DNA of 64,000 nt from Phycisphaerales bacterium (GTDB lineage: Bacteria; Planctomycetota; Phycisphaerae; Phycisphaerales; UBA1924). Positions within the stretch are counted from its first letter, which is position 1. The number at the start of each line of letters is the position of its first letter. The notes beneath the pieces were generated by a model. The model was not told the DNA's origin. It searched no databases and saw nothing but the letters and a program-made list of their open reading frames with translations. Of the stretch, positions 19,673 through 63,506 are shown piece by piece. The stretch is from positions 2,035,992 through 2,099,991 of the forward strand of contig OZ245777.1 in the NCBI GenBank assembly GCA_965227775.1. The letters run 5' to 3'. The position numbers and the translations under genes were made by a program.

Positions 19673-19690
19673 GGCGGTTCTCCTACCGAT

Positions 19691-23503: not shown

Positions 23504-23605
23504 CTCGGGTCTCCTCTCGGCACAGGATACAGGAAGCCGGTCGACAACGCAAGGTGAATGCGGGCGCGGGAGGCCGGCGGGGTGAGAGTGCGGGTGGGTT
23601 GCGTG

Positions 23606-25537: not shown

Positions 25538-25557
25538 GGCGGGCTCCTTCGGAGCCC

Positions 25558-25586
25558 AGCATACCACAAATCCTCTGTTGATCCAA
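25558..25586 (-). promoter_or_regulatory. Candidate sigma70-like promoter for gene 23606..25537
   Basis: The minus strand reads TTGGAT-17 nt-TATGCT, preceded by TGg (extended -10). Just downstream, GGGCTCC-GAA-GGAGCCC can form a hairpin that includes the AAGGAG RBS. Promoter rules for this lineage are not established. Confidence 0.3.
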
Positions 25587-25601
25587 GGCGATTCGGGGCC
25601 G

Positions 25602-25682
25602 CTACGGGCAGCCGGCGTCGAAGGCGTTCTGGAAAGCAAGAAAGTCGAAGATGGTGAATTTGCCGTCGCCGAGCGTACGAGC
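25602..25682 (-). pseudogene. Orphan remnant of a dockerin-like module (3' gene fragment only)
   Basis: Minus-strand translation gives ARTLGDGKFTIFDFLAFQNAFDAGCP followed by the stop. An in-frame TGA lies only 43 codons upstream (25734-25736), and the open frame runs through the terminator hairpin. No passenger domain, signal peptide or RBS. Confidence 0.7.
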
Positions 25683-25690
25683 ACACACCA

Positions 25691-25725
25691 AGAGAAAACG
25701 GCGCGCCCGGAGTCGGTCGCGCCGT
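25691..25725 (-). terminator. Rho-independent terminator downstream of the PEP-CTERM gene
   Basis: Minus strand: ACGGCGCG-12 nt loop-CGCGCCGT followed by TTTTCTCTT. Begins 32 nt after the stop at 25757. Confidence 0.65.
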
Positions 25726-25756
25726 TGCCTTTCTCACCACTACCAGATGCTGGCCG

Positions 25757-26416: not shown

Positions 26417-26443
26417 GGTGTCATCTCCCGTGCCTGCGCACGC

Positions 26444-26611
26444 TTAGGGGCAGCCCGCCGAGAAATCGGTGCTGTATGCGAGGAAGTCGAAGAGGTTCCA
26501 GATCCCGTTGCCGTCCCAGTCGGCGATGGGGTCGCGATCGTTGAACAGGTTGAAGAACATCTGGAAATCGAAGATCGTCACATCCCCGTCCTCATCCAGG
26601 TCGACGTCGCA
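26444..26611 (-). repeat. Dockerin-like C-terminal module, copy F (double, diverged)
   Basis: CDVDLDEDGDVTIFDFQMFFNLFNDRDPIADWDGNGIWNLFDFLAYSTDFSAGCP followed by the stop. Confidence 0.85.
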
Positions 26612-33333: not shown

Positions 33334-34143
33334 ATGCGTCGCACCCTGACCGCTGCCTGCCTGACTTCCCTTGTGGCTTCCACTGCCGTCGCCCAATCGA
33401 CCGCCACCTATCGCGTGACGTTCGATGCGACATGGTCGGAAGCAACGCACCCAGTCGATTTCCCGCGAGATCCGCACTTCTCGCCGCTCGTGGGCGCGAC
33501 CCATAGCGAGCCGGGCCTCATCTGGGAGGCCGGCCAGCTGGCAAGCCCGGGCATGGAGGTCATGGCTGAGACCGGTAGCACCTCGCTCCTGCTCTTCGAG
33601 ATTTCCCAGATGGCGACGGATGGCATGATCGGGACCGACATCGTCGGCGGGCCCATCCGCCTGAGCCCGGGCAGCGCCTCCGTGACCTTTGAGACCTCCA
33701 GTGAGTACTCGCTGCTCACCCTCGTGACGATGATCGCGCCGAGCCCAGATTGGTACGTCGGCACGCAGGGTCTGGACCTTCGTGACGACGGCCGCTGGCG
33801 CGAGAGCATCGTGTTCGAGCTGTGGCCCTATGACTCGGGCACCGACTCGGGCGTGACCTACACCTCGCCGAACCAGGACACGAACCCGGCAGAGCCGATC
33901 CGTCGCATCGCCGACGAGTTCCCCTTTACGGGCACACCCTCCCTGGGCACGTACACGATCGAACTCTTGAGCGTCGAGTGCGTCGCCGAGCTCGATGGTG
34001 ACGGCGTCCTGACCATCTTCGACTTCCTCGAGTTCTCCAACCTGTTCGATGCAGGCGATCTGCGTGCCGACCTCGACGGAGACGGCTCTCTGACCATCTT
34101 CGACTTCCTCGCGTATCAGGACGCGTTCGCCGACGGCTGCTGA
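33334..34143 (+). CDS. Secreted spondin_N-like domain protein with C-terminal double dockerin-like module
   Basis: Signal peptide with GAGAGGAGA RBS. TYRVTFDATWSEATHPVDFPRDPHFSPLVGATH ... IAPSPDWYVG is recognisable as a spondin N-terminal-type domain. The tail is the shared module, ending in DGC then the stop. Confidence 0.8.
   Translation: MRRTLTAACLTSLVASTAVAQSTATYRVTFDATWSEATHPVDFPRDPHFSPLVGATHSEPGLIWEAGQLASPGMEVMAETGSTSLLLFEISQMATDGMIGTDIVGGPIRLSPGSASVTFETSSEYSLLTLVTMIAPSPDWYVGTQGLDLRDDGRWRESIVFELWPYDSGTDSGVTYTSPNQDTNPAEPIRRIADEFPFTGTPSLGTYTIELLSVECVAELDGDGVLTIFDFLEFSNLFDAGDLRADLDGDGSLTIFDFLAYQDAFADGC
33979..34143 (+). repeat. Dockerin-like C-terminal module, copy G (double)
   Basis: CVAELDGDGVLTIFDFLEFSNLFDAGDLRADLDGDGSLTIFDFLAYQDAFADGC followed by the stop. 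Confidence 0.9.
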
Positions 34144-39819: not shown

Positions 39820-39987
39820 CTACGGACACCCAGCGTCGAACTCGTTCTGGAACGCAAGGAAGTCGAAGAGCGTGAGGCTGCCGTCGCCGTCGAAGTCGGC
39901 GCGCGGGTCGCCGGTGTCGAACAGGTTCTGGAATGCCAGGAAGTCGAAGATGGTCAGGGCGCCATCACCGTCCAGGTCGGCCCGGCA
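39820..39987 (-). repeat. Dockerin-like C-terminal module, copy H (double)
   Basis: CRADLDGDGALTIFDFLAFQNLFDTGDPRADFDGDGSLTLFDFLAFQNEFDAGCP followed by the stop. Confidence 0.9.
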
Positions 39988-40728
39988 CGGCGAGATGATG
40001 GCCACGTCGAACACCCGCACGTCGTCGATCGTGCCGAGGAACTCATCGTTGGGCCCGGCTGTTGGGCTGCCGGTAAACCTGCCGCGACCTCCGATCGAGA
40101 GCTCGAAGTCATTCTGCGCCGTCGAGCCGAACCCGGCGGGAATGGGCTCGATGGCCTCGACGATGCCATCGACTGCGAGGAGGAGGAAGTCGCCCGAGCG
40201 TGCGGCCACGATCTCGTGGGGCTGCCCGTCGTTGACGGGTGTCACGCTGGCCAGGCCGACGCTCAGGGCGCCGTCGGCGGAGATGGCGAATATCACGGCG
40301 CCGTCGTCGCGCCGGACGGTCATGGCCCAGCCGTCTTCGCTTCCGAGTTTCTCCTTGTTGATGACAAATCGACCGCCGGGGGCGCCCGGCTCGCTGTTGT
40401 CGGTCACCACGACCGCCGCGACGGAGAAGTCGCCATCGGCCAAGTCGAACGCGTCCTCGTCGCCCAGGGGGCGGACCTGTTCGTCCGAGACACCGTCGAA
40501 GTTGACCGCGAAGCCGCCCATGAAGGGCGTGAAGGCGATGCCCGCGCCCAGGACGCCGTCATACGCCGTACCCAGCGTGCCGCTATTGGCCGTCGGGTTC
40601 GAGGCGTCGTCGAAGTCGTAGTGCAGGATGGGCTCGGGCGTCTGGGCGCTCGCGGCCGAGGCGAGTGCGAAGGCGGAGCATGCAAGTGCGGCGACGGCAT
40701 TCAGTTGGGCGGAGCGGGTGATGGACAT
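39820..40728 (-). CDS. Secreted LamG/concanavalin-A-like lectin-fold protein with C-terminal double dockerin-like module
   Basis: Signal peptide MSITRSAQLNAVAALACSAFALASAASAQ. LHYDFDD...NSGTLG...NFDGVSD...FSVAAVV...GTIDDVRVF is typical of the Laminin_G_3-type fold. Shared C-terminal module. Confidence 0.8.
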   Translation of the reverse strand: MSITRSAQLNAVAALACSAFALASAASAQTPEPILHYDFDDASNPTANSGTLGTAYDGVLGAGIAFTPFMGGFAVNFDGVSDEQVRPLGDEDAFDLADGDFSVAAVVVTDNSEPGAPGGRFVINKEKLGSEDGWAMTVRRDDGAVIFAISADGALSVGLASVTPVNDGQPHEIVAARSGDFLLLAVDGIVEAIEPIPAGFGSTAQNDFELSIGGRGRFTGSPTAGPNDEFLGTIDDVRVFDVAIISPCRADLDGDGALTIFDFLAFQNLFDTGDPRADFDGDGSLTLFDFLAFQNEFDAGCP

Positions 40729-49316: not shown

Positions 49317-49433
49317 TGAGTGTTGACGATAGGCCGCCACGGAAAAGGGGTTGACCGGTCGGCCCGGATCGGCGAGTATGGTGTCGGCGGAGGGGCCGGC
49401 TTCGCGAGGGGCCGGTGCGAATGGAGGCTTGCC

Positions 49434-50138
49434 TTGCCATCACAACACGTCGGGATCGTGGCCGTGAGCCCCGAAGGCGCCGCCCTCACGTATCGCCAAT
49501 TCAACCGACACGCAACCCAGATGACCCTCCCGGACAATCGCCCCAGCGTCACGATGCACGGCGAACCGTTCGACCAGTACCTCCGGGCGATCGGTGATCA
49601 GGACTGGGAAAGCGTGGGCTCGCTGCTGCGACGCTCGGCCGAGTGCCTGGCAGCCGCCGGAGCCCAGTTCTGCCTGACGCCGGACCACGTTGTTCAGCAC
49701 GCCGTCCAGATGGCCGAAACGGGCTGCCCGATTCCCTGGTTGACCATGGCCCAGCTCTTGGCCGACCAGGTGGGCCAGGACGGCCGCCAAAGCGTCGGAA
49801 TCCTGGGTACTCGCCTGGTGACCAACGGTTCGGCCTACCAGACGCACTTGGGCCTCCGGGGGGTGAAGGTGATGACCCCAAGCCCTGAGGAGGTCGACGA
49901 GGTCGACTCGATCATCTTCCAGGAGCTTGTACTCGGAGAGACCCGCGAGGCCTCCCGCCAGCGGCTGGGCGAGATCATCGGGAGGCTCGCCGATCGGGGC
50001 GCCGAGGCCATCGTGATGGGCTCCAGCGAGGTCCCGCTGCTGCTCTCGAGCGCGAATTGCCCGCTTCCGCTCTATGACCCGGGCGAGATCCAGGTGGTCA
50101 CGGCGGTCAAGATGGCTGTCGGGCCGGCGGCGGCATGA
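49434..50138 (+). CDS. Asp/Glu/hydantoin racemase-family protein
   Basis: TTG at 49434 with GGAGG 6 nt upstream (in frame within ORF 49320..50138). HVGIVAVSPEGAAL, ILGTR and AIVMGSSEVPLLL resemble aspartate racemase. The second catalytic motif reads GSSE rather than GCTE. Confidence 0.6.
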   Translation: MPSQHVGIVAVSPEGAALTYRQFNRHATQMTLPDNRPSVTMHGEPFDQYLRAIGDQDWESVGSLLRRSAECLAAAGAQFCLTPDHVVQHAVQMAETGCPIPWLTMAQLLADQVGQDGRQSVGILGTRLVTNGSAYQTHLGLRGVKVMTPSPEEVDEVDSIIFQELVLGETREASRQRLGEIIGRLADRGAEAIVMGSSEVPLLLSSANCPLPLYDPGEIQVVTAVKMAVGPAAA

Positions 50139-50564
50139 TGCGGACGGGGGCCGTACATCGGCCGCCGGAGACGACCGATCCGATCGTCCGAGAGCCAGTT
50201 ATCGAAAGCCCCCGGATTGCAACCCAAGGCGATCCGGAGGCGAATACATGCGAGCCGAGCGCTCGGAGTCGCGAAAAAGGGCTGGACAAGTGGGGGTGCC
50301 CGCTGGTATCCTGACTCCGAGCAGATCCGCGTGCAAGGCGGGAGCCGTCGACAGGCGGTATCCTTCGCCGACCGAGGACGTACACGGTCGAGCGCAGGCC
50401 CTGCATCCCGCCCCACGTGAGCGTGCCGGTGCACAACGCATCGGTGGACAAGCAGGCCACCTGACCGACCAGCCCTTGGGCAGGATGGCGACCGCACCAA
50501 CCCTCCCACGGGTCCCACGAGCAAACCAGCCGGCCAGACGCCGATCCATACCTGGAGCATCATC

Positions 50565-53500
50565 ATGAGTGGCCAACGTACCGGTTCGCCCCGCCACGCC
50601 AAGTCCCCATTCGGCCTTGGCCGCCTCCGCTCGCTGTATCGCTCGGCCGGCAAGGCCCTGGGAGAGCCGCGTGCGACCGAACCCGAGGGGACGGGGCAGA
50701 TCCTCGAGCAGCTCGAGTCGCGAATCTTGCTCGGCGGCGATCACCCGAGCTTTGAGTTGCCGCTGACGCCCACCTCGGGCACCGAGATCGTGCTCGACGG
50801 CGTGACCGGCGAGGGCACCGTCGACGGCGAGATCGAAGACATCACGATGAGCCTGGCGGACGACCTGTTCCGCTTCGATGCTCCGCAGACCGACTTCGTC
50901 ACCGTGTGGGCCGACACCATCAACGTGGTTGGCGGCTCCGCGCTCGATTCGCGCGTCGAGATCTACGACATCGACGGAGCGCTCGTGGCCCAGGGGTCCT
51001 CGCAGGGCGAGCTCTCCGATGGCCTCTTCTCCGACGGCTGGGCGGGCTTCCTGGCCGAGGGCGGCGAGACCTACTTCATCCGCGTGCTGAGCGACGTGGA
51101 CAACGCGGGTCAGATGACGACCGGCGAGTACACGGTGCGCGTCGATGCGATCACGAATACCGACCTGGTCATCGAAACCGACCCCATGCCGACGCCCCCG
51201 GCCCGCTTCGGTGCCGGCTTTGCCAGCGGGTCGATCACGCTGGTCGGCGACGACGTCGTCTACCGCGTCGAGGCGGGCAGCGACGACGCGTTCAACTCGC
51301 TGGCGACCTTCTACGCCGCCCTGCCTGCAATGCTCCCGTCGGACCTTGACACCCGCGTCGACGTGTACGACGAGCAGGGCCGGTTCCTGACCGGCGACAG
51401 CGACACGGGCCGACTGCTCACCGGCTTCGACATTGTGGAGTCGGCGGCCGACGCCGTGTTCTTTGTCCGCGTCCGCAGCGACCGCTTCGACGCGGGCGAT
51501 ACGCGTTCGACCGGCGCGTACCAGATCAACGCAGAGATGGCCGCCGCCGAAATCGACATCGATCCGGTCATCCGTCGCGGCCAGACGACCGACGCCATCG
51601 CCAGCGCCTTCGACACCAGGATCTACCGGTTCACCACACAGGGCTCGGGTCTGAGCTTCGTTGGCGCAATCGGCACGGGCCTTGTGCCATTGCCCGAGCC
51701 GGCCGTCCGGCTGTACGACAGCAACGCGGATCTCGATGGGTTCAGCGACCTTGCCGGCATCGCCGACCTGCAGATCCAGCTCGAGGGCAACACCGAGTAC
51801 TTCGTGGTCGTCGAGACCTTCGATAACCCGCCCGGTGGCCAGTATGACCTGCTCATCGAGAGCAACCACACGTTCTTGCCGAACCAGGAGATCGATGATC
51901 ACGTCGATCGTCTTGAGGGCAACGACCCTGACGGCGAGCCGATCGAGTTCAGCCCGACCGAGGGGTACACCAACCCCGACCAGTTCGACTTCGTCCGCCG
52001 CCAGTTTGAGTTGGCGACACCGCTGCGCTTCAGCGATCCGTTCTTGTACACCCGTACGTTCGTCGACCCGAACGGCATGTTCCCCGACGTGGTCAACCCA
52101 GTCGCGGACCGCTCGTACGTGCAGCAGGCGCTGGGAACGGGCCGCATCCACAGCTTCGGCGATACCGATCTGTTCCAGTTCACCGTGCCGCTCGACATGC
52201 TGGGTGACTACGCCGGCGACAACGACGACGTGGGCGACGCCCTCTTCGCCGGTGGCCAGGGTGACTTCATCATCAAGGGCACCGACAACGACACCGGCGG
52301 CCCGATCACCCGGAGCTTCCTGGGCGTCTGGGATGCGCAGGATTGGTGGCCGGTGCGCGCTGGCGTTGACATGGAAATCTACGCGATGGAGTCGTGGACG
52401 TACGACCCAGACGCTGACGTTGGTGGCACTGCCCTCATCCTGGGCGGCGAGTTCCAGTTCGCCGACTTCCAAGCGGCGCCGTTTGTCGCGGCGTACGCGT
52501 ATGACCCGACGCCGGGCGTCGAGGAGTTCGTGCTCACGCCGCTCGCCGGCGGCCTAGACGGAGCCGTGTACGACTTCGGCGTATTCGATCTGGACCCCGA
52601 CGACGACATCGAGAGCCAGCTCATCGTGGCAGGCGAGTTCACGGGCGGCATCCGCTCGTACACCGTCCAGCCCGGCGACTTCATCTCCGCCGGTGTGTTC
52701 GCTCCGCTGCCGATCGCGACCTTTGCGTCCGAGTACTACGCGATCGAGGTGTTCGATCCGGCTGATCCGGAAATGGGCGATGAGAACCCCGAGAGTCTCT
52801 GGTTCGGCGGAACCGGCTGGCTTGAGGAACTGATCGTCGACGACATGGGGCCGCGAGCCGGTGCGTTCTTCGAGATCGAGCAAGGCGCGGGTGATGGTGT
52901 CGTCCTCGACCTGAAGTCGTTCGAGATCCCGCCACCCCCCGTGGGCATGGGCGAAGCAACGGAAGGCCTTGTGGTCGGCGGCACCTTCGACGGCGTCGAG
53001 GGCTTCGCCGTCAGCAACGTGTTCTTCATCGAGGGCGATGCGGGCGCAATGGCGCCGGGTGCATTCATCCTCGACGACATGGGCGGCGGCGTGAACGACA
53101 CCGTCCGCGCGCTCGAGGCGTGGGATCGTGACGGCTCGGGCACCGATCTCTTCGATGAGATCATCGTCGGCGGCGACTTCACCGCCACGGCAGGCGGCCA
53201 GCCCCTGAACTTCATCGGTTCCTACGCGGGTGCATGGGCATCACTGGGCTCCGCGCTGCCCGCCGGCGGACCGGTCGACTTCAACGCACCGGTGCACAGC
53301 CTCAACGTCTTCATCGACGGCGAGTTTGGCGTCGGCACGGCGCCGTTCGCCGAGAACCCGGTTCTGTACGCCGGTGGTGAGTTCACTGTCGCCGATGGCA
53401 GCCCCATCGGCCGCATCGGGGGCCTGACCTTCGACACCACGCTCCTTGTGTGGACGTGGACGCCGCTCGGCTTCGGCTCGACCGATACCGTTTTCGCGCT

Positions 53501-56500
53501 CGAGAACTTCAACGACGAGGTTCCGAACCTGTGGGATCGCGACGACCGTCCCGGTACCCGGATGTCGCTGGTGCTGAGCCCCGATTTCTTGCCCGGCGCA
53601 CAGACCTTCGTCAACGTTTACGACTCTTCGTTCCGCCTGATCTACTCCAACGACACGATCGCGCCGCCATTCCCCGACCCTGCAGGCGCCTTCGATCCGT
53701 CGATCCAGACGCCGCAGTTCGGTGCGGACGGTCTGGTCATCGACATCGGCGACGGCCAGGAGTCGCAGTTCTGGGCCGGCGAGACCTACTACCTCGAGAT
53801 CAGCTCGGTCGGCGGCAATGGACGATACAGCTTCTCGCTGACCACCGACGCGTTCCCACCCGACATCGATGGTGACGGCACATTCGACGATGTGATCAGC
53901 CAGTACTTCGAGCCGGGCGGTGCCGACTTGGTCCGCGCAGAGTTCGACGCGGCTCCCGAGATCGTGCTGGGTTCGACGACGTCCGGCGACGGCCGCAACT
54001 TCCTTGGTCTGCCCAACGCGGCATTCCAAGTGCGCCAGTACGACGTGTCGCCGAGCGGCTTCCTGGTCACCCAATACCAGGAGCTGGGTGTCATCGAGCG
54101 AATCGAAGACTTCGACATCTACTTCTTCCGCGCGCCAGACAACGGCATGACCGAGATCCGCCTGGCGACGCAGCAGATCACCGATGAATTCGTCGAGGAC
54201 ATCCTCGATCTCAACGTCTTCCCGCCGGCACTCGATCGCCGAATCGAGAACAAGACCTACGACAGCCCGCTGGATGGCAAGATCCGCGTGTTCAACAACG
54301 ACTTGCAGCTCCTGGCGACCAACAACGACAACGAGGGCTTCTCTGGCGTCCGCCAGCAGCAGCCAATCGGTACGCTCGATCTTGATGGCGACACCCTGTA
54401 CGGCCTCGGTGACACCGAGATCGACGGCCGCATCTTCAACAACGTCGACCCCCGCGTTGTGGTGCCCACCGTGCGCGGTGAGGTCTACTTCATCGTGGTC
54501 GAGAGTGGCCAGCTCGAGAGCTTCGAGACAAACCCCGATCTGGTCGATTGGCGTCGCGCCATCGGTTCGTACGAGCTGCTCATCAACAGCTCGCCCAACC
54601 TCGAATTCGCCGACGATCACCAGGACTTCAGCGCGACGTTCTTCGACTTCTACACGTACGACACCCCGCTGGCCGTGGACGACATGGGCCAGGGCGAGAT
54701 TCGCGGCGAGATCCGCACCCGCTCGGGCGGCGTAGACGACAACGACGGCTTCTTCGCCTACGCCGTGGGCACGGGCGATATCACCGTCACGGTCGGCGCC
54801 GATGTGCCCACCGAGTTCCAGCCGCGCGTCACGATCTACGACAGCCAAGGCAACATCCGCGTGAGCCCGACCACGGCCACCCAGGAGGCCCCCGCTGAGG
54901 TGACCTTCTTCGCCAACAAGGGCGATCGGTACATCATCCGCGTTGACGCGAACGTTGGCCAGCAGGGTGGCTACACCGTCGAGGTCGATGGCGCGCCGGC
55001 CGGCGATGACTTCGCCGACTCGCACCGCCCGATCGATGCGACCGAGATCGAGATTCTCGACTTCCAGGGCCTCGGCCAGATCTCCGGTCTGATCGACAAC
55101 CCCGGCGATACCGACATCTTCCGCTTCTCGACGCCGGGCTACGACGAGCTGACCATCGATGTGCAGTCGACCAGCTTCGGCTTCGATCCGCTCTTCCGCG
55201 TGTTCGAGGTCAGCGAGGACCCGGCCGGCAACCAGATCTTCCTGCAAATCGCGTTCAACGACAACATCAACCCCGGCACGGTCAACGCTCGTGCGACGTT
55301 CCCGATTACCGGTGCCGATCGCACGTCGGGCGCCACGATGCGCACCTACAACGACTATTACATCGTCGTCGAGGGTGCAGACCCGCAGGCTTCGACCGGC
55401 TCGTACGACCTGTTGATTACCGCGACGCCGACCGACGACCACGCCGACGAGGACGAGTTCCCATTCGCCTCGCCGCTCCCCGTCCTGCCGGCTACCGGCC
55501 AGGGTGAGCGTTCGGGTGTCATCGAGGACAGCAACGACACCGACCTATTCGTCTTCACCGCTCCCGGTGGCGGCGAGGCCCTCCTGTCGGTCGTCAGCAA
55601 CGAGATGAGCACATTGCGGCCCACCATCCGCGTGTTCGACTCGGAGTTCAACCCCGTCATCAACCTGACGACGGGCACCGACGCCACCGTTACGGGCCCC
55701 GACGCCCTGTTCTCGGCGGCGAGCTTCCGCTTCGACGTAACACGTCAGGCCCAGTACTACGTGCTCATCGGCAGCGACGGCACCGGTGCGGTCACGACCG
55801 ACACGGGTTCCTATTCGCTCAACGCGACCACACCGACGGCCGACGAGACGCCCAACGAGGGTGAGTTCGAGATCGCCCGCGAGATCGCCCTTTCGACCGA
55901 GACCGGCGATGGCGTCGCGTCCGGCATCATCGGCACGGTCAACGACACCGACCTCTTCTTCTTCGACACCATCGTCGATGCATCGCCCGCGCCGCAGCAG
56001 CACGTGGTTCGTGTCGATGCTTCGGGCGAGATGGTCACGCCGGTGCTGAGCGTGTTCGACTCCGGCACCAGCCTGCTCACGCAGATCATCGACGGTGGCA
56101 CGGGCGACCTCGCGCCGGAGGCCGGAATCATCGAGACAAACATCGTCGCGACGGGCATGCCCGGCGAGCGGTTCTTCCTCCTGGTCGAACTCGACGACAC
56201 GAGCATGTTCCCGACTGGCGCGTACGCCGTGACCATCGATGGCCCGATCCCCGACGTGGTGCCTACGCCGGGCGACGATCACGCCAACGAGGGCCAGTTC
56301 AGCCAGGCGACGGTCATCGAGCTCGATGAGCGGACCGGCAACGCCGAACTCACCGGTCGCATCGATCCTTCGCGGGACAGCGATCTCTTCCGCATCAACC
56401 CGCTCGATGGCGGCCGAACCTTTGTCCAGGTCGTGACGCCTTCCGGCAGCCTGCTCGATGTGGACCTTACCGTCTTCGAGGAGTTCGGTGGCGGCGGTAC

Positions 56501-58010
56501 CCCGGTACGGATCGCCAGGGACACGACCGGTTTCCAGGGCGTGGACGCCTCGGTCGAATTTGACATCGTCGGCGCCGGTACGCCGTACTACCTGCTCGTC
56601 AGCGGCCTGAACTCCGCGACCGGTGAGTACACGCTGCGTATCGACACCCAGCCCGAGACCTTCTTCCTGTATTACCCCGAGGGCTTCGTCAACGAGTCGA
56701 TCAGCGAGTTCGTCTCGATCAGCAACCCGAGCCAGAGCCAGTCGGTCAGCTACACGATCCGCTTGTTCTACGAGAACCCCGACCTCGACGACATGACGAT
56801 CGTCGAGAACGAGACACTCGCCCCGGGCAGCCGTGGTGGCGTGACCATCGCCGAGCGGGGCAACTTCGTCCTGCCAGGCGTCGCTGTCAACGAGCCGTAC
56901 TCGATCGTGATCGAGTCGGACGGCCAGCTTGGTGCGACGCTCTCGCACTACGACTTCGAGGGTGCCGTGGGCGAGGCCTTCACCCCAGTGACCAGCGAGA
57001 CGTGGGCCTTCGGCCGCCTCGAGCGGAGCCCGGGTCAGGTCGAGTCCTTCGTCGTCTTCTTTAACCCCAACGACCACGACGTCGTCGTGACGCTCAGCGC
57101 GTTCGTTGGCACGACCGAGGTGCAGATCCAGCAGACCGTCGAGGCCAGCAGCCGCGGCGGCTGGGAACTCAGCGGCCTCGGACAGCTGCCCATCGGCGTC
57201 TTCGGCGCCACGCTCACCAGCGAGCCGGTCGATGGCTCCATCACCGACAGCATGGGCATCGTGGCGGCTCTCAGCCAGTACGATCTGGTTAACGGCGAGG
57301 CGTTCGGCGTGCTCGGCGATCCGTCGGGTGGTGCGACCTTCAACGTTGTGCCGACCTTCACTTCGGGCTCGGAGGTCACGGCTGAACTCGTGCTCTTCAA
57401 CCCAGGTGATGCGGCTACCTCGGTCACGATCACCAGCGATTACATCACCGCGCCCCTGCCCAACGTGCAGGTGACGCGTGAGATCGGTGCGGGTCAGACC
57501 GTCGTCCTTCGAGCGGCCGACCTCAGCCTCGCGGGCGATGTGGCCGCAGGCCTGACCATCGAGTCAACCCTGCCGCTGGCGGGTGTCGCGCTCGAGCGTC
57601 AGAATGGCGATGCGAACGCGATCGCTACACAGAACACGGCCGCCTCGACGTGGTTCTTCGGCGATGCCTTCCTCAACAGCGAGGAAGCCGGCCTGACCTA
57701 CTTCGAGACGCTCAGCTTCTTCAACCCCACCAGCGAGTCGATCGCGATCGAGATTACGCTCTTCTTCAACGATGGCACCACCGCCAACACGGTCCGCCAG
57801 GTTGGCGCGGGCAGCTTCAACAACCTTCGCTTGGACACCTTCGCCCCGATCATCGATCGCCAGATGCTCAACTTCTTCTCGATCCAGTTGAGCTCGAACC
57901 TGCCGCTCATCGCGTCGCTGACGCACTACGACCTGGTCCTCGACGGTGGCTGGACCAACGCCGGTGCGCCTCTCGGCCTGACCAACCCGCTCGATCGCAT
58001 CATCACCTGA
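50565..58010 (+). CDS. Giant (2481 aa) multi-domain extracellular protein: N-terminal LExLExRxLL motif, at least 9 PPC-like modules, a central propeller-like region and 4 C-terminal repeats
   Basis: ATG with GGAG 7 nt upstream. LEQLESRILLGG at aa 47-58. Repeated D-x-D-(L/I)-F-x-F modules, each ending with a Y-x-(L/V)-x-I signature (DTDLFQFTVP, DFDIYFFRAPDNG, DTDIFRFSTPGYDE, DTDLFVFTAPGGG, DSDLFRINPLDGG; GSYDLLITATPTDDHADE, GEYTLRIDTQPE). (V/A)GGxF motifs at aa 600-950. Four repeats of about 110 aa from nt 56654 (FVSISNPS, FVVFFNPN, LVLFNPGD, LSFFNPTS). Confidence 0.85.
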   Translation: MSGQRTGSPRHAKSPFGLGRLRSLYRSAGKALGEPRATEPEGTGQILEQLESRILLGGDHPSFELPLTPTSGTEIVLDGVTGEGTVDGEIEDITMSLADDLFRFDAPQTDFVTVWADTINVVGGSALDSRVEIYDIDGALVAQGSSQGELSDGLFSDGWAGFLAEGGETYFIRVLSDVDNAGQMTTGEYTVRVDAITNTDLVIETDPMPTPPARFGAGFASGSITLVGDDVVYRVEAGSDDAFNSLATFYAALPAMLPSDLDTRVDVYDEQGRFLTGDSDTGRLLTGFDIVESAADAVFFVRVRSDRFDAGDTRSTGAYQINAEMAAAEIDIDPVIRRGQTTDAIASAFDTRIYRFTTQGSGLSFVGAIGTGLVPLPEPAVRLYDSNADLDGFSDLAGIADLQIQLEGNTEYFVVVETFDNPPGGQYDLLIESNHTFLPNQEIDDHVDRLEGNDPDGEPIEFSPTEGYTNPDQFDFVRRQFELATPLRFSDPFLYTRTFVDPNGMFPDVVNPVADRSYVQQALGTGRIHSFGDTDLFQFTVPLDMLGDYAGDNDDVGDALFAGGQGDFIIKGTDNDTGGPITRSFLGVWDAQDWWPVRAGVDMEIYAMESWTYDPDADVGGTALILGGEFQFADFQAAPFVAAYAYDPTPGVEEFVLTPLAGGLDGAVYDFGVFDLDPDDDIESQLIVAGEFTGGIRSYTVQPGDFISAGVFAPLPIATFASEYYAIEVFDPADPEMGDENPESLWFGGTGWLEELIVDDMGPRAGAFFEIEQGAGDGVVLDLKSFEIPPPPVGMGEATEGLVVGGTFDGVEGFAVSNVFFIEGDAGAMAPGAFILDDMGGGVNDTVRALEAWDRDGSGTDLFDEIIVGGDFTATAGGQPLNFIGSYAGAWASLGSALPAGGPVDFNAPVHSLNVFIDGEFGVGTAPFAENPVLYAGGEFTVADGSPIGRIGGLTFDTTLLVWTWTPLGFGSTDTVFALENFNDEVPNLWDRDDRPGTRMSLVLSPDFLPGAQTFVNVYDSSFRLIYSNDTIAPPFPDPAGAFDPSIQTPQFGADGLVIDIGDGQESQFWAGETYYLEISSVGGNGRYSFSLTTDAFPPDIDGDGTFDDVISQYFEPGGADLVRAEFDAAPEIVLGSTTSGDGRNFLGLPNAAFQVRQYDVSPSGFLVTQYQELGVIERIEDFDIYFFRAPDNGMTEIRLATQQITDEFVEDILDLNVFPPALDRRIENKTYDSPLDGKIRVFNNDLQLLATNNDNEGFSGVRQQQPIGTLDLDGDTLYGLGDTEIDGRIFNNVDPRVVVPTVRGEVYFIVVESGQLESFETNPDLVDWRRAIGSYELLINSSPNLEFADDHQDFSATFFDFYTYDTPLAVDDMGQGEIRGEIRTRSGGVDDNDGFFAYAVGTGDITVTVGADVPTEFQPRVTIYDSQGNIRVSPTTATQEAPAEVTFFANKGDRYIIRVDANVGQQGGYTVEVDGAPAGDDFADSHRPIDATEIEILDFQGLGQISGLIDNPGDTDIFRFSTPGYDELTIDVQSTSFGFDPLFRVFEVSEDPAGNQIFLQIAFNDNINPGTVNARATFPITGADRTSGATMRTYNDYYIVVEGADPQASTGSYDLLITATPTDDHADEDEFPFASPLPVLPATGQGERSGVIEDSNDTDLFVFTAPGGGEALLSVVSNEMSTLRPTIRVFDSEFNPVINLTTGTDATVTGPDALFSAASFRFDVTRQAQYYVLIGSDGTGAVTTDTGSYSLNATTPTADETPNEGEFEIAREIALSTETGDGVASGIIGTVNDTDLFFFDTIVDASPAPQQHVVRVDASGEMVTPVLSVFDSGTSLLTQIIDGGTGDLAPEAGIIETNIVATGMPGERFFLLVELDDTSMFPTGAYAVTIDGPIPDVVPTPGDDHANEGQFSQATVIELDERTGNAELTGRIDPSRDSDLFRINPLDGGRTFVQVVTPSGSLLDVDLTVFEEFGGGGTPVRIARDTTGFQGVDASVEFDIVGAGTPYYLLVSGLNSATGEYTLRIDTQPETFFLYYPEGFVNESISEFVSISNPSQSQSVSYTIRLFYENPDLDDMTIVENETLAPGSRGGVTIAERGNFVLPGVAVNEPYSIVIESDGQLGATLSHYDFEGAVGEAFTPVTSETWAFGRLERSPGQVESFVVFFNPNDHDVVVTLSAFVGTTEVQIQQTVEASSRGGWELSGLGQLPIGVFGATLTSEPVDGSITDSMGIVAALSQYDLVNGEAFGVLGDPSGGATFNVVPTFTSGSEVTAELVLFNPGDAATSVTITSDYITAPLPNVQVTREIGAGQTVVLRAADLSLAGDVAAGLTIESTLPLAGVALERQNGDANAIATQNTAASTWFFGDAFLNSEEAGLTYFETLSFFNPTSESIAIEITLFFNDGTTANTVRQVGAGSFNNLRLDTFAPIIDRQMLNFFSIQLSSNLPLIASLTHYDLVLDGGWTNAGAPLGLTNPLDRIIT

Positions 58011-58048
58011 TGCGGCCGACGCAGCGACGTGAAGCCGCATGAAAGATC

Positions 58049-58080
58049 AACGCCCCCGGGTTCGCTCGGGGGCGTTTTCC
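58049..58080. terminator. Bidirectional rho-independent terminator between the giant gene and the rhodanese-like gene
   Basis: AACGCCCCCG-GGTTCGCT-CGGGGGCGTT followed by TTCC on the + strand, with an A-rich 5' flank serving the convergent minus-strand gene. Confidence 0.7.
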
Positions 58081-58104
58081 TTGGCGGTGCGTAGTTGTGC
58101 CGAC

Positions 58105-58641
58105 TCAGGGTACAGGTCGGCGGACGTCACGCGGCGGCGACTTGGGCGCTTCGTTCTCGGGCTCGCCCGACGCGATCGGGAAGCCTGCGTCGGACCACTC
58201 GATGACGCCGCCGCCAAAGAGCCGGGCCTGGTCGTAGCCAATCACGAGCAGGCGCTTGGTCATCGCCCGGCCCGACAGCGCGCCCGGGCCATCTGCGTAC
58301 ACCACGATGTGCTCGAACTGGTTGACGTTGGGGTCCACGCGATCACGCTCTGCGAGGTCCGGCAGCGTTACGTGCAGTGCCCCGGGCAGGCGGGAGTCTT
58401 CAAAGGCGGCCCGTCGGCGGGGATCGATCAGCATGAGGAGAGGCTCGTCGGGATTCTCTTGCTGCTCGAGCCAGAGCAGCCGTAGTTCCGTCAGGGAGAT
58501 GTTCTTGATGTCCGCGTCCGTGATGCCCGAATTGCACCCGCCTACGCACGCAGACACGAGCGCGAGCCCGACAACGAGGCGACGGGCTGAGCTGGATCGG
58601 CCGTCATAGCGGGTGAAGACTCTTCGGCCAGTTCGGGGCAT
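58105..58641 (-). CDS. Rhodanese-homology-domain lipoprotein (active-site Cys absent)
   Basis: ATG at 58641. Lipobox LVSACVGGC. Rhodanese-like LIDPRRRAAFEDSRLPGALHV and GGGVIEW. The active-loop position reads VVYADGPG (Ala where the catalytic Cys is expected). Confidence 0.65.
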   Translation of the reverse strand: MPRTGRRVFTRYDGRSSSARRLVVGLALVSACVGGCNSGITDADIKNISLTELRLLWLEQQENPDEPLLMLIDPRRRAAFEDSRLPGALHVTLPDLAERDRVDPNVNQFEHIVVYADGPGALSGRAMTKRLLVIGYDQARLFGGGVIEWSDAGFPIASGEPENEAPKSPPRDVRRPVP

Positions 58642-58706
58642 CCTGTATCCTTGCCTTCGCTTTCCGCGACGATGGGAAATATCGTCCGGGGCAGACACGT
58701 TATGCG

Positions 58707-59663
58707 GTGATCATCCGTGCGGGACAGCCGTGGGAGGTGCGCTTGCTCAGAGAGACCGCCATCGTCGTCGCAGCAGCCGCCCTGGCATGTGTCAGCCGGT
58801 CCGCCCAAGCCCAGGACGCCAGCGACGTGTCCGAGGCCTCCCTCATCGCTGAGTCAGTTCAGGTGGCCCCTGGTACCACCGTGCTGTTGGGGCTCCACTT
58901 CGAGCTCGCGGACGGCTGGCACATCTACTGGAATGGTCGCAACGACACAGGCTTTGCGCCCGAGGTCGACTGGGCGCTTCCCGAGGGCGTCGCGGTCGGC
59001 CCGCTCTTGTGGCCGGCTCCAGAGCGATACATCTCGCCCGGCGACATCCTCGATCACGTGTACGAGGGCAACCCGACCATTCTGGTGCCCGTCACCATCT
59101 CAGCGGACGCAGCGCCCGGCTCCACGCTCTCGATCTCCGGCGAAGCCGAGTGGCTGGTGTGCAAGGAACTCTGTCTGCCCGGCTTCGGCCCGATCTCTAT
59201 CGATCTGACAGTGGGCGAGGCATCGACAACGCGGGCAGCACCCCTTTCCCGCGCTTCGGACATTGGCGAGGCCGCAACGCGATTGCCCGAGCCAGTAGCT
59301 GCTGCGACGCAGCCCGAATCGTTCACGGTGGCATGGACGGCGGAAGCCGTCACCGTTCGAGCTGCCGGGTCGAGGTCGGTGGAGTTCTATCCGGCACTGT
59401 CCTCAACGCCACTTGCGAACACGCTTGCAGACGCGCAGGCCAAGGGCGACACGATGCGCCTCCGCCTCGCCTCCGAGTCTCGCGGCATGCAGACCAATGA
59501 CGAGCGGCGGCTCGTAGGCGTGCTCGCGATTGAGTCTGCCTCTGGCGTGAAGAACTGGTACCAAATCGACTCGGGGCCGGACGGCTTTCGTACCCCGGAA
59601 AACTCAGAGCTGGTTTCACGTGTCCGCCAGCGCGTTGGCAACCCTGCCGACGACGGCGGCTGA
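58707..59663 (+). CDS. DsbD/DsbC N-terminal-domain-like (thiol:disulfide interchange) periplasmic protein
   Basis: GTG start and signal peptide. ELADGWHIYWNGRNDTGFAPEVDW ... EAEWLVCKELCLPG matches the DsbD-alpha-like domain pattern (H-x-Y-W ... C-x-x-x-C). Confidence 0.65.
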   Translation: MIIRAGQPWEVRLLRETAIVVAAAALACVSRSAQAQDASDVSEASLIAESVQVAPGTTVLLGLHFELADGWHIYWNGRNDTGFAPEVDWALPEGVAVGPLLWPAPERYISPGDILDHVYEGNPTILVPVTISADAAPGSTLSISGEAEWLVCKELCLPGFGPISIDLTVGEASTTRAAPLSRASDIGEAATRLPEPVAAATQPESFTVAWTAEAVTVRAAGSRSVEFYPALSSTPLANTLADAQAKGDTMRLRLASESRGMQTNDERRLVGVLAIESASGVKNWYQIDSGPDGFRTPENSELVSRVRQRVGNPADDGG

Positions 59664-59718
59664 AGACTCATCCTGCATTCACGGTCGCAAGAGCGGCCAC
59701 TAGGAAAGGAGCCCTTCC

Positions 59719-60390
59719 ATGGGTTGGTTCAAACGAAACGGCATGGCAATGGTCGGTACGGTCGCGGCGATGACGGCGGCAACGAGCCTGTCGGTGGCGC
59801 TCGCCGGCCAGAACGGCAACATGAACGGGCAGATGGCCAGCCAGGGCGTGACCGCTGGCGAGAAGGCCCCGATGTTCACCCTCAAGGACACCGAGGGCAA
59901 GGAGCACAGCCTTAAGGACGTGTTGGCCAAGGACAGCACGAAGGCCGTGGTCATCGAGTGGTTCAACCCCGACTGCCCCTTTGTCAAGAAGCACCACGAC
60001 AACGCGACCACCATGACCGACCTGGCCAAGAACCACAAGAACGACGGCGTCGTGTGGATGGCCATCAACTCGGGCGCCGAAGGCAAGCAGGGGGCCGGCA
60101 TCGATCGCAACAAGAAGGCGATCGAGCAGTACAGCATCAACTACCCCGTGCTGATGGACATGGATGGCAAGGTTGGCAAGGCCTACGGCGCGAAGCGCAC
60201 GCCCGAGATGTATGTCATCGCCAAGGACGGCACGATCGTCTATCACGGGGCGATCGATAGCGACCGAAGCCCGCGCAACATGGGCGAGATCAACTACGTC
60301 GCAGACGCGCTGAAGGCCCACCTGGCCGGCGAGACCGTCGCCACCCAGCGGACGCAGGCCTACGGCTGCTCGGTGAAGTACAGCAACTGA
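59719..60390 (+). CDS. Redoxin/thioredoxin-fold protein (AhpC/TSA-like), secreted
   Basis: AAGGAG RBS and signal peptide. GEKAPMFTLKDTEGKEHSL ... VVIEWFNPDCPFVKK ... TPEMYVIAKDGTIVYHGAID is typical of the redoxin fold. Confidence 0.75.
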   Translation: MGWFKRNGMAMVGTVAAMTAATSLSVALAGQNGNMNGQMASQGVTAGEKAPMFTLKDTEGKEHSLKDVLAKDSTKAVVIEWFNPDCPFVKKHHDNATTMTDLAKNHKNDGVVWMAINSGAEGKQGAGIDRNKKAIEQYSINYPVLMDMDGKVGKAYGAKRTPEMYVIAKDGTIVYHGAIDSDRSPRNMGEINYVADALKAHLAGETVATQRTQAYGCSVKYSN

Positions 60391-60488
60391 TCGTTTCTGC
60401 TTGTGCCCTTCGCCCGGGCCGGCGTTGACGCGCCCGCCCGGGCTTTGCTACAGGCGGCCCCCGCCTGCGCCCGATCTACTATTCGGAC

Positions 60489-62576
60489 ATGGCCCAACTC
60501 CTCCCCATGCTCTCCACGCTGTTCGACCTGCTCCTCGTGGTTGTGGGCTTCGGGCTCATCATCGTCATCCACGAGCTCGGCCACTTTGTGGCGGCCCGTT
60601 GGGCCGGCATTCGCGTGTTTGCGTTCGCCGTGGGCTTCGGGCCGGCGCTGTTCAGCTACCGCAAGGGCATCGGCCTTCGTCGTGGCAGCAGCGAGCCCAC
60701 CTACAGGGCCATGCTGGCCGATCGAGGCCTGACCGTTCACGATGAGCCGCCAACGGACGTCAGCCCGACCGAGTATCGCCTGAATTGGCTGCCCTTCGGC
60801 GGCTACGTCAAGATGCTGGGCCAGGAAGATGCGAATCCTGGGGCCGTCAGCCATGCGCCCGATAGCTACCAGACGTGCCACCCCGCGAAGCGGCTCGTCG
60901 TCATCTCTGCGGGCGTCGTCGCGAACGTCGTGCTCGCAGCGTTCATCTTCATGTTCGTGTTCATGGTGGGCCTGAAGACCGAGCCGCCACGGCTGGGAGT
61001 GGTCGCGTCGAACGGGCCGGCCGCGGCCGCGGTTCCCGCCGATCCATCGATCGTGCCGGCGGGGCTCGCGTCGGGCGACACGGTGCTTCGGATCAACGGC
61101 CGTGAGGCGCGCAGCTTCAACGACCTCATGCTCGCAACCGCCATGGCAACACCCGGCAAGCCGCTCGACGTCCTCGTCCAGCGCGATGGCTTCGACGAGC
61201 CATTGCGGTTCGAGGTCCAGCCACGCAAGAGCGAACTGACGAATCTGCAGGACATCGGTGTCTCGCCTGCGCGCTCAACGGCGGTCTTCGACGACGGCGG
61301 CGATCGTGCATCCTTCGACCGGGTCATGGAGCAGATCGAGCTCGACGGCGTTTCCCCTGGTTCGACCCTCGCCTCGGTCGCGATCGAAGGCGAATCGCCT
61401 GAGTCGATCGAAGACTCGGGTGAGCTGGCCAGTGTCTTCGCAGCATCGGATGGCAGGGCTGTCGAGCTGGTCTTCGAGCAAGGCGACACATCCCACCGCG
61501 CCATACTGGAGCCTCGCCCGGTGTACCAAGAGGCCATGGTCAAGATGCCCTCCGGGGCCCAGTCGCCGCAGACGCACCTGCTCGGGCTTACCCCGGTCAT
61601 GACCGTGGCCGAGCTCGATGAGTCGGCGCGCGGTTACGAGCAGGGCCTCCGCACGGGTGATGTGTTCGCCCGCCTGGGCTCGGTGGAGTATCCCAGCATC
61701 ACCGCTGGTATCGCCGAGATCAAGCGGCGCGCGGGAGAAGACATCCCCATCGTCGTACTGCGCGATGGCAAGCAGGTCGAGCTCACCGCCAGTGTCCAAC
61801 GAGACGGGACCATCGGTTTCTTCCCGTCCCAAGACCTCGAATCGGCTCGCGTATCGCTCTCGCCAGCGTCGCTCAAGGCGCCGGCGGCGATCGATCGACC
61901 GGGCGTGCGCATCATCTCGATCGCCGGCCAGCCGGTCTCCAGCTTCGCCGACATCCGTGCGGCATTCATTGAGGCAACAACCACCGCGTTTTCAACGAAG
62001 ACCGAAGCGCAGGTCGACATCATCGTGCAACTGCCAGACGCTGAAGCCACCGAGCGGTCGCGCACGCTCTCGCTCTCGAGCGAGCAGGTCGACGAACTGC
62101 ACGGCCTGAGCTTCGGTCCGCCGCCCGGCCTTCTGAGCATCTTCCGACCCGCCGAATTCACGCTGAAGGCCGAGGGGCCGATCGACGCCATTGGCGTGGG
62201 GCTTGCCGAAACCCACCGCGTGATGATGATGACCTACCTCACGTTCGCCCGCCTTGTGCAGGGCAGCGTGAAGGTCGAGCACCTCAAGGGCCCCGTTGGT
62301 ATCGCCCACCTGGGGACGCGCGTGGCCGACCGCGGCATCATCTGGCTTCTCTTCTTCATGGCGCTCATCAGCGTGAACCTGGCGGTCGTCAACTTCCTGC
62401 CGTTGCCAATCGTCGACGGCGGACAGTTCCTGTTTATCCTGTTCGAGTGGGCCCGCGGCAAGCCGGTGCCCGAGGCCATCCAGAGCTTCGCGACTGTCGT
62501 GGGGCTGCTGTTGATCGGAGCGGCGTTCCTTCTCGTCACGTTCAACGACATCCGCAACGTCTTCACCGGGCTCTGA
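60489..62576 (+). CDS. rseP: RIP metalloprotease RseP (site-2 protease, M50) with expanded PDZ region
   Basis: HELGHFVAARWAG (HExxH) in TM1. Central PDZ-like repeats. C-terminal NLAVVNFLPLPIVDGG motif. Confidence 0.88.
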   Translation: MAQLLPMLSTLFDLLLVVVGFGLIIVIHELGHFVAARWAGIRVFAFAVGFGPALFSYRKGIGLRRGSSEPTYRAMLADRGLTVHDEPPTDVSPTEYRLNWLPFGGYVKMLGQEDANPGAVSHAPDSYQTCHPAKRLVVISAGVVANVVLAAFIFMFVFMVGLKTEPPRLGVVASNGPAAAAVPADPSIVPAGLASGDTVLRINGREARSFNDLMLATAMATPGKPLDVLVQRDGFDEPLRFEVQPRKSELTNLQDIGVSPARSTAVFDDGGDRASFDRVMEQIELDGVSPGSTLASVAIEGESPESIEDSGELASVFAASDGRAVELVFEQGDTSHRAILEPRPVYQEAMVKMPSGAQSPQTHLLGLTPVMTVAELDESARGYEQGLRTGDVFARLGSVEYPSITAGIAEIKRRAGEDIPIVVLRDGKQVELTASVQRDGTIGFFPSQDLESARVSLSPASLKAPAAIDRPGVRIISIAGQPVSSFADIRAAFIEATTTAFSTKTEAQVDIIVQLPDAEATERSRTLSLSSEQVDELHGLSFGPPPGLLSIFRPAEFTLKAEGPIDAIGVGLAETHRVMMMTYLTFARLVQGSVKVEHLKGPVGIAHLGTRVADRGIIWLLFFMALISVNLAVVNFLPLPIVDGGQFLFILFEWARGKPVPEAIQSFATVVGLLLIGAAFLLVTFNDIRNVFTGL

Positions 62577-62579
62577 TCG

Positions 62580-63506
62580 GTGGAGAACGTGCTCGGCCTT
62601 CTGCTCCTGCTCGCCGTCGGTGGTGCCTTGTATTGGCTGCTGCTGGTGTTCCTCACCGCCCGCACGCTGACGCACCCGCCCCGCCAGACCTACGCCAGCG
62701 CAGTCTCGCGCGGCCGTGCCGGCGACCCGAGCGAACTCGACGAGCCGCGCGAGTTTGAGGCATGGACGCTTCCAAGCCAAGGGCGCGATCTCTCCGTCTG
62801 GGATGTACGTGGGCGAAGTGCCGACGGCCCGATCGCCATCGTGACACACGGCTGGAGCAGCGGCAAGGTGCACGCGTTGCGACGCCTGCCGCTACTCTGC
62901 AGCTTGTGCTCGCGTGTCGTCTTCTGGGACATGCCCGGCCACGGCGAGAGCGGCGGGCGTTGCACTCTGGGCGTCCTGGAAACCAACGACCTGCTGGCAA
63001 TCATCGAACGCGTCGGCCATGGTCGTCCGATCGTGCTCTGCGGCTCATCGATGGGCTCAGGAGTCTCCATCGCTGCGGCGGCCCGGAGCGAGCACATCTC
63101 GCTCGTCATCGTCGAGGCGCCCTATCGCATGCCCATCACACCCGCCCGCAACGTCATGCGATTCCAGCGCTCGCCCGTGTGGCTGAACCTGAGTCCGGCG
63201 TTGGCATACGTGGGCTTGGCCGCCTGCGGCCGCTGGACTGGTCCGGGGCTGGTGCATGCAGGCGGGCCTGTGTTTGACCGAGCAAAACTGGCCGCCAAGC
63301 TCGCGTGCCCGCTGCTGGTCCTGCACGGCGACGAAGACCCGACGTGCCCGACCGTCGACGGCCGCGAGATCGCCGAAGCGTGTCCGAGCGGGCGATTTGT
63401 TGAGATTCCCGGCGGAACGCACCAAAACCTGTGGAAGGATGCCGACTGCCGTGCGATGATGGAACGTGAATACACGAACGCCATCAACGCCGTCGCCCGA
63501 TCCTGA
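62580..63506 (+). CDS. Alpha/beta hydrolase
   Basis: GTG start and N-terminal TM helix. Nucleophile elbow GSSMG. HG oxyanion-type motif (VTHGWSSG). C-terminal GGTHQNL (His). Confidence 0.75.
   Translation: MENVLGLLLLLAVGGALYWLLLVFLTARTLTHPPRQTYASAVSRGRAGDPSELDEPREFEAWTLPSQGRDLSVWDVRGRSADGPIAIVTHGWSSGKVHALRRLPLLCSLCSRVVFWDMPGHGESGGRCTLGVLETNDLLAIIERVGHGRPIVLCGSSMGSGVSIAAAARSEHISLVIVEAPYRMPITPARNVMRFQRSPVWLNLSPALAYVGLAACGRWTGPGLVHAGGPVFDRAKLAAKLACPLLVLHGDEDPTCPTVDGREIAEACPSGRFVEIPGGTHQNLWKDADCRAMMEREYTNAINAVARS

Follow-up and report, generated by a model that had tools for sequence, protein, structure and literature searches.

A giant Phycisphaerales protein with a LEPR-XLL-type leader and a predicted C-terminal ASRAH tetrad, and a candidate export module for proteins carrying this leader

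The protein described here is encoded by an uninterrupted open reading frame (ORF) of 2481 codons at 50565-58010, on the forward strand of a 64,000-nucleotide window from a Phycisphaerales bacterium (contig OZ245777.1, positions 2,035,992 to 2,099,991; coordinates below are those of this window unless a genome position is given). We consider it probable that this is a vertically inherited core surface or extracellular protein of the Phycisphaerales, exported by means of an N-terminal leader and binding to glycans or matrix. It carries at its N-terminus a basic leader with an LExLExRxLL motif, and at its C-terminus four domains predicted to adopt the ASRT/TM1070 fold of the ASRAH superfamily. 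The motif, proposed earlier as a planctomycete export signal (Studholme 2004; NCBIfam LEPR-XLL), is not new. New here are the syntenic slot that the gene keeps, the coupling between leader and tetrad, the association of the leader with a gene module containing SecA_DEAD and M50-HlyD proteins, and a structured RNA in the 5' leader of the gene.

The leader covers residues 1-57 (50565-50735, forward strand). It is basic (isoelectric point, pI, 10.2) and predicted to be disordered, the AlphaFold confidence (predicted local distance difference test, pLDDT) of residues 1-53 being below 50, and it contains LYRSAGKALG and then LEQLESRILL (residues 47-56, nucleotides 50703-50732), followed by GG-DHPSF. 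In about 60 Phycisphaerales orthologues, down to 29% identity, (F/L)xxLExLExRxLL is kept and is mostly followed by (G/A)GDHPS, and a second motif, L-x-R-x-(A/V)-G-(R/K)-A, is conserved about 20 residues before it. The remainder of the orthologous leaders is variable, always basic and never hydrophobic. A pair made of a small residue and glycine (GG, AG, SG, DG or EG) usually stands directly after LL and could be a processing site.

A motif of this kind, RRLxxExLExRxLLA, was described from R. baltica and proposed to be, possibly, an export signal of a new type (Studholme, Fuerst & Bateman 2004, as given in PMC8567305). In T. immobilis, 52 genes encode motif proteins, the products of 20 of them were detected in the proteome, and eight of the ten longest proteins carry the motif, the export route of such proteins not having been established (PMC8567305). 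Giant proteins from Chlorochromatium and from a Vibrio are also known to carry the motif, and LEPR-XLL proteins with C-terminal RTX regions occur in Proteobacteria (PMC10868602). A preliminary description of this stretch, made from its letters alone, had described the motif as recurring on very large planctomycete surface proteins of unestablished export route, in agreement with this literature, and had asked whether it is enriched among the large proteins of the genome. In the genome (3.33 Mb, a single contig), the LE.R.LL core lies near the N-terminus of six ORFs, all of them large (811-3222 residues); a strict LExLExRxLL pattern matches the focal ORF only, and the shorter core recovers all six. 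Three paralogues pass the cut-off of the LEPR-XLL model NF012209, with 21.9-24.5 bits, and the paralogues sharing the leader are of typical exoenzyme types (S8 subtilase, M10-like protease, cyclophilin and cadherin protein). The 3222-residue leader protein (G000:C1:1492611-1502279) has no Pfam match at all.

The other mark of LEPR-XLL proteins, namely very large size together with a motif placed right at the N-terminus and no classical signal peptide, is found in the focal protein. Within its first 70 residues the highest 12-residue Kyte-Doolittle mean is 0.67, and the maximum within the first 100 residues, 0.94 at residue 75, lies inside the first folded module, whereas the dockerin-tailed neighbour proteins reach 1.7-2.3 and have, with one exception, textbook signal peptides. 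An in-frame stop lies about 144 nucleotides 5' of the ATG, with no ATG, GTG or TTG between them. The ATG and the codons after it are invariant across nine orthologue loci, and so is the Shine-Dalgarno sequence GGAG at 50554-50557 (forward strand), seven nucleotides before the ATG. A signal peptide hidden behind an earlier start is thus excluded, and the preliminary description, which had proposed a giant ORF of exoprotein type without signal peptide and had named a better upstream start as what could overturn it, holds on both counts.

The encoded protein (265 kDa, pI 4.05) is very acidic, with 391 acidic against 108 basic residues; it contains seven lysines and no cysteine, and no RTX nonapeptide (GGxGxD) was found in it. 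The dockerin-tailed neighbours of the GC type that were checked in the window (18380-28303, 33334-34143 and 39820-40728) have two to eight cysteines and, in all but one case, a classical signal peptide; the exception is the ORF at 23606-25684, whose first start codon is probably too far upstream. Unlike them, the leader-bearing giant protein has neither a classical signal peptide nor a cysteine. It gives no match to the dockerin_GC tail (NF041540) either, as had been described, the sole other NCBIfam match being a sub-threshold Por_Secre_tail.

The C-terminal region, residues 2031-2481 (56655-58007, forward strand), is made of four repeats starting at residues 2031, 2145, 2259 and 2361, and it ends ...HYDLxLxGGWxxxGAPLGLxNPL. 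The repeats had been recognised before and are real, but they had been assigned to no named family, and this was mistaken: by sequence profile and by structure model they are ASRAH (ASRT/TM1070-fold; DUF5719-like) beta-sandwich domains. Pfam PF07100 (ASRT) scores 24.2 bits on the whole protein and 27.0 bits on repeat 4 scanned alone, above the 25-bit criterion, and a precomputed match to it exists for many orthologues. A profile of 54 tetrad sequences finds TM1070 (1nc7, E 2.3e-9) and ASRT (2ii7, E 6.6e-4) in the PDB. The AlphaFold model (pLDDT 93.6; predicted template-modelling score, pTM, 0.91) shows the four domains as one compact unit, and Foldseek matches the single repeats to 1nc7 (TM1070) with template-modelling (TM) scores of 0.78-0.79 and to 2ii9 (ASRT) with a score of 0.72, the probability being 1.0 in both cases. 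Members of the superfamily keep an asparagine where strand 2 ends and open strand 1 with an aromatic residue, Trp (De Souza, Iyer & Aravind 2009, PMC2739507). Each of the four repeats, here and across 54 orthologues, has an invariant Asn-Pro after strand 2 (N24, N137, N249 and N357), and strand 1 starts with Trp in repeats 2 and 4 and with Phe in repeats 1 and 3.

TM1070 forms a tetramer with clefts for which sugar binding has been predicted, and ASRAH families of extracellular type occur as dyads or tetrads (PMC2739507). The single-chain tetrad, as modelled, would fit this picture. As the stand-alone homologues are homotetramers with predicted sugar-binding clefts, the giant protein is most likely a glycan- or matrix-binding one. 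It could be a surface fibre or an adhesin, of which the tetrad would form the carbohydrate-binding or cell-envelope-anchoring foot. The C-terminal region of the 811-residue cyclophilin-type peptidyl-prolyl isomerase that also carries the leader (G000:C1:182080-184515) resembles divergent ASRAH repeats by eye; the A1 profile did not detect such repeats in it at E <= 0.01.

The two ends of the protein are coupled. A four-repeat profile retrieves only 364 out of 1.84 billion representative proteins, nearly all with three or four C-terminal copies and with lengths from about 330 to 3000 residues. The leader motif is present within the first 200 residues of 91 of 100 full-length-like tetrad representatives, close variants of it occur in four more, and no classical signal peptide was seen among the remaining ones. 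In the genome, the leader is found on all three tetrad ORFs, namely the focal protein, the S8 subtilase and the M10-like protease. Since the leader goes with the tetrad and a Sec-type signal with the dockerin tail, N-terminal signal and C-terminal tag are matched in kind. These results suggest a function of the tetrad within the leader pathway, where it could for instance serve as an anchor.

The giant protein has 98 full-length homologues of 1846-3006 residues; all the named ones are called hypothetical and come from metagenome-assembled genomes (MAGs) of Phycisphaerales or Phycisphaerae, and the C-terminal region is present in 74 species-representative genomes. The gene is single-copy in the genome. 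In five orthologue loci, from 87% to 32% protein identity, it lies between an Asp/Glu racemase gene and a convergent rhodanese gene, past which all five have genes for DsbD_N, an M50 protease (RseP-type) and an alpha/beta hydrolase; an AhpC/TSA-type gene is found in four of the five and is absent from L013. The 5' gap of the giant gene measures 361-427 nucleotides in these loci and 426 nucleotides (50139-50564) in the window, where the syntenic block spans 49320-63506 with the rhodanese gene on the reverse strand. The giant gene is thus vertically inherited and has kept its place; it is no island gene. A further orthologue comes from a contig whose title reads 'MAG: Leptolyngbya sp. PLA1' (L040, QWIH01000010.1). 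As it is nearly identical to that of the Phycisphaerales MAG L041, the contig is probably of planctomycete origin and either mislabelled or mis-binned.

The body between leader and tetrad is built mostly from one family of modules of about 100-140 residues, which windowed self-BLAST reveals at both ends of the protein; self-BLAST of the whole protein showed no repeats, and these were seen only after cutting into windows. About ten modules resembling pre-peptidase-C-terminal (PPC) domains start at residues 98, 228, 349, about 1000, about 1182, 1349, 1480, 1623, 1759 and 1903. The first three (residues about 60-440; 50742-51884, forward strand) are modelled as jelly rolls like those of PPC and collagen-binding domains, with pLDDT mostly 80-93. 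The seven others (residues 996-2030; 53550-56654, forward strand) are related by self-BLAST both among themselves and with the N-terminal modules, and the last five of them open with a DDHA-type motif. In the AlphaFold model of residues 1-1100 (53-sequence alignment, mean pLDDT 82), the best Foldseek match is the tandem collagen-binding domain pair s3a-s3b of ColG (5iku, E 1.8e-9, probability 1.0), followed by CUB-type jelly rolls. PF04151 reaches at best 13.3 bits on the giant protein (E 0.16, module 1), below its 25.9-bit cut-off, and is matched by several orthologues and by the S8 paralogue. The DDHA-module profile gave noise in the PDB plus a weak match to a ColH collagen-binding domain (E 0.068), and Pfam and NCBIfam scans of the whole protein and of 15 segments yielded almost nothing above threshold. 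With ColG as the top Foldseek match, the term PPC-like thus holds at the fold level, and the earlier count of at least nine such modules is in line with the ten or so found.

Residues 532-995 (52158-53549, forward strand) form a central region predicted to be a beta-propeller of the DUF5122 ('delta-60') type, with an all-beta model of about 26 strands. PF17164 is matched by 14 of 52 orthologous central segments (best E 1.9e-10), in keeping with the propeller-type region of the preliminary description, and the Rax2 propeller by five; the protein's own central region is sub-threshold for PF17164 (E 1.6). No propeller is among the top Foldseek matches of the multidomain model of residues 1-1100, a list dominated by jelly rolls, and the propeller-region profile has no match in the PDB.

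Export of the protein would be Sec-independent and directed by the leader, a basic and disordered stretch of about 57 residues ending in LExLExRxLL that would replace a Sec or Tat signal. The mature chain would then be very acidic and free of cysteine, with about ten jelly rolls, one DUF5122-type propeller and the ASRAH tetrad. The best candidate machine would be an orphan envelope module that encodes GAF-HlyD and HlyD adaptors, an M50-HlyD fusion and a secondary SecA_DEAD ATPase. A conserved module of this kind has been described as secretion-related, its role and substrates being unknown (Kamneva, Poudel & Ward 2015, PMC4452313). Three copies of this module, in which GAF/X-HlyD and M50-HlyD genes are joined by an HlyD or a SecA_DEAD gene, are present in the genome (G000:C1:3233015-3238289, 2576557-2582810 and 2754889-2760439). 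Copy 1, which encodes GAF-HlyD, a protein that fuses HlyD to an M50 intramembrane metalloprotease, and a simple HlyD adaptor, is directly downstream of the gene for a 1344-residue cadherin protein with LEPR leader (G000:C1:3228651-3232685), and the two further copies are each followed by a secondary SecA_DEAD gene. The M50 domain of the fusion is related to leader peptidases of ribosomally synthesised and post-translationally modified peptides (RiPPs; NF041824, 154 bits, below cut-off), and it may remove the leader.

The distribution of leader and module was compared in 401 Planctomycetota genomes, the leader being defined as an NF012209 match at E <= 0.001. The M50-HlyD fusion occurs in 104 genomes and the NF012209 match in 34, of which 33 also have the fusion (naive Fisher p = 1.6e-20). 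Seven genomes (G194, G176, G160, G068, G196, G410 and G363) have leader genes no more than about 10 kb away from the module, and in G194 a co-directional run of HlyD, M50-HlyD and SecA_DEAD genes leads into a leader gene of 5105 residues. Poisson estimates for this adjacency are 0.005-0.009, resting on rough background rates, and the adjacency is suggestive only. Taken together, the co-occurrence and the occasional adjacency to LEPR genes make the module a candidate exporter. We put forward, as a possibility that we hold only tentatively, that a single pathway dedicated to surface display begins with the leader and ends with the tetrad, and that it is a secretion system uncharacterised so far, with its own signal: SecA_DEAD would recognise the leader, which would pass through M50-HlyD and be cut there, other HlyD adaptors and a TolC-like channel would join this fusion in spanning the envelope, and the tetrad would fix the cargo to an envelope glycan.

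Several observations weigh against the reading that we consider probable. The N-terminal 80 residues score 13.3 bits with NF012209 (13.5 bits in the genome-wide search) for a cut-off of 17, and PF07595 (Planc_extracel) does not match the N-terminus at E <= 10, its best score anywhere in the genome being 13.4 bits for a cut-off of 25.5. At the other end, the tetrad is taken to bind sugars from what has been predicted for its homologues. As to the module, the LEPR-positive G409, a 91%-complete MAG, lacks the fusion that its congener has, and 71 module-positive genomes have no strong NF012209 match. The focal giant gene adjoins none of the three module copies, its neighbours being racemase, rhodanese, DsbD_N, AhpC and RseP genes; a LEPR gene is lacking from the surrounding 9 kb or so at about 35 of 40 M50-HlyD loci, and an adjacency test found one at 4 of 40 module loci against 1 of 40 control loci (Fisher p = 0.18). 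Finally, the co-occurrence signal lies mainly between families, so that shared ancestry could explain it. The leader could accordingly direct export through some other machinery, the SecA_DEAD / M50-HlyD module merely sharing its lineage distribution, and the position of the focal gene, the many module loci and genomes devoid of LEPR partners and the between-family character of the signal speak in favour of this. We nevertheless regard it as rather unlikely, given that the module is present in all but one of the LEPR-positive genomes, that LEPR genes adjoin it in at least seven genomes of different families, once in a co-directional run, and that its M50 domain resembles RiPP leader peptidases.

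Two other explanations depart further from leader-directed export through this module. The protein might be a substrate of a classical type I secretion system, leaving C-terminus first through ABC, HlyD and TolC proteins, with the N-terminal motif acting as a retention or plug element of the LapA type. Its size, its acidic and cysteine-free composition and its lack of an N-terminal signal would be expected of such a substrate; Proteobacteria have LEPR-XLL proteins whose C-terminal regions are of RTX type (PMC10868602), four TolC-like genes are present in the genome, and the extreme C-terminus is conserved. This conserved C-terminus is, however, part of a well-folded ASRAH domain and not a disordered signal, GGxGxD repeats are missing, no HlyB/HlyD equivalog reaches its cut-off in the genome (TIGR01846, best 358 bits for a cut-off of 726; TIGR01843, best 46.6 bits for a cut-off of 209), and the best ABC exporters do not adjoin an adaptor gene. 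We therefore judge this route improbable. It is even harder to believe that the protein is not exported at all, being cytoplasmic or associated with an intracellular membrane, or that a mis-called start hides its signal peptide, even though no recognised signal is present. The upstream in-frame stop, the lack of an alternative start and the conserved start codon and Shine-Dalgarno sequence speak against a wrong start, as does the absence of a hydrophobic N-terminus in more than 50 orthologues. The domain types, the zero-cysteine composition and the pI of 4 are those of an extracellular protein, and paralogues with the same leader are proteases of pro-domain architecture.

The 5' region of the gene contains conserved elements of its own. 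Expression would start from a conserved sigma-70-like promoter about 245 nucleotides upstream of the gene and proceed through a structured leader RNA. The promoter-like site (50283-50312, forward strand), found by consensus scan, consists of TGGACA, an 18-nucleotide spacer and TATCCT, with a TG upstream of the latter. Its identity across eight orthologue loci is 87-100%, versus 34-74% for the DNA just upstream, and it is recognisable in five of the six loci of alignment A2. From this site we infer a transcription start near 50319 and a 5' untranslated region of about 245 nucleotides.

The RNA element (50328-50446, forward strand) was predicted by RNAalifold from ten loci as a three-way junction plus a 3' hairpin, with 41 base pairs. 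In the alignment 94.9% of cells are paired, versus 34-49% with slid partners, and double changes occur at 11 pairs versus 0-5 when slid, a level that none of 500 shuffles reaches. Its identity to close orthologues is 75-96%, versus 57-63% at third codon positions. A scan of the leader region matched no Rfam family. Covariance model R1 finds, besides the source loci, one copy per genome and in this genus only among 61 genomes of the family. DNA and covariance-model searches of 60 other genera of the family gave no convincing copy; a match in G041 is weak, partial and has no LEPR ORF beside it. The spacer from the RNA to the Shine-Dalgarno sequence (50449-50545) is C/A-rich and poorly conserved (48-78% identity among orthologues with 63-76% protein identity), in contrast with the conserved elements on both its sides.

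The preliminary description had pointed to a 9-bp stem in this 426-nucleotide leader and had considered the leader possibly regulatory. The inverted repeat exists (50262-50321, forward strand, with arms 50262-50270 and 50313-50321, one or two nucleotides off the span first given) and brackets the promoter, but it is unlikely to be an RNA structure and was rejected as a stem: its left arm is upstream of the -35 box and would be untranscribed from the inferred start, and its pairing is broken by an uncompensated T-to-C change in L009, the closest orthologue, only about 5 bp of it being kept in L010. The 5' leader is probably regulatory all the same, through the element at 50328-50446 instead of the 9-bp stem.

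In Planctomycetes and several other phyla, some of the largest bacterial proteins known carry a leader of this type instead of a signal peptide, and their way out of the cell has been unknown for two decades. The giant gene offers a clean case in which to study it, being single-copy, found in the same syntenic slot in five loci and made of well-modelled domains. Two testable leads emerge: the leader nearly always travels with a tetrad of sugar-binding type, and it co-occurs with a module having a leader-peptidase-like domain. Leader-tetrad coupling and leader-module association are the parts worth following up. If true, a dedicated leader-tetrad pathway would be a previously uncharacterised secretion system and would answer a question open since 2004. 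Apart from these leads, the structured RNA of the 5' leader is a candidate regulator, as yet uncatalogued.

Compared with the motif proteins described by PF07595 and NF012209, the giant protein is alike in having an LExLExRxLL-type motif after a basic stretch, in being a very large protein of surface type and in lacking a hydrophobic signal, and the motif is enriched among the longest proteins of its genome, as in the motif proteins of the Studholme type. It differs from these models by a serine in place of the expected proline and by the lack of an RRL prefix, and its family adds to the LEPR-XLL description an LxRx[AV]G[RK]A motif, together with GG/AG-DHPSF conserved behind LL. The modelled C-terminal domains resemble the ASRAH superfamily in their beta-sandwich fold (TM 0.72-0.79), in the Asn-Pro after strand 2 and in the aromatic residue that opens strand 1, and they are arranged as a tetrad, as in the amidase-fused extracellular ASRAH family. 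Unlike in the three ASRAH families of 2009, this tetrad ends Phycisphaerales proteins that carry the LEPR leader and many different passenger domains.

The three modules of the genome have the gene content published by Kamneva in 2015; that paper gave no substrates, and the link to LEPR-leader proteins is drawn here from co-occurrence and adjacency. LapA, MpIBP and SiiE are likewise giant, acidic and repeat-built proteins with no Sec signal and with terminal ligand-binding domains. The present protein differs from them in having no RTX repeats and a folded C-terminus, in a genome without classical HlyB/HlyD. Within the window itself, the GC-type dockerin proteins (NF041540) are also of exoprotein type and join a modular passenger to a C-terminal tag. 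They do so with a signal peptide, cysteines and a dockerin, whereas the giant protein has the LEPR leader, no cysteine and the predicted ASRAH tetrad, and in this genome the leader-tetrad and signal peptide-dockerin combinations do not mix.

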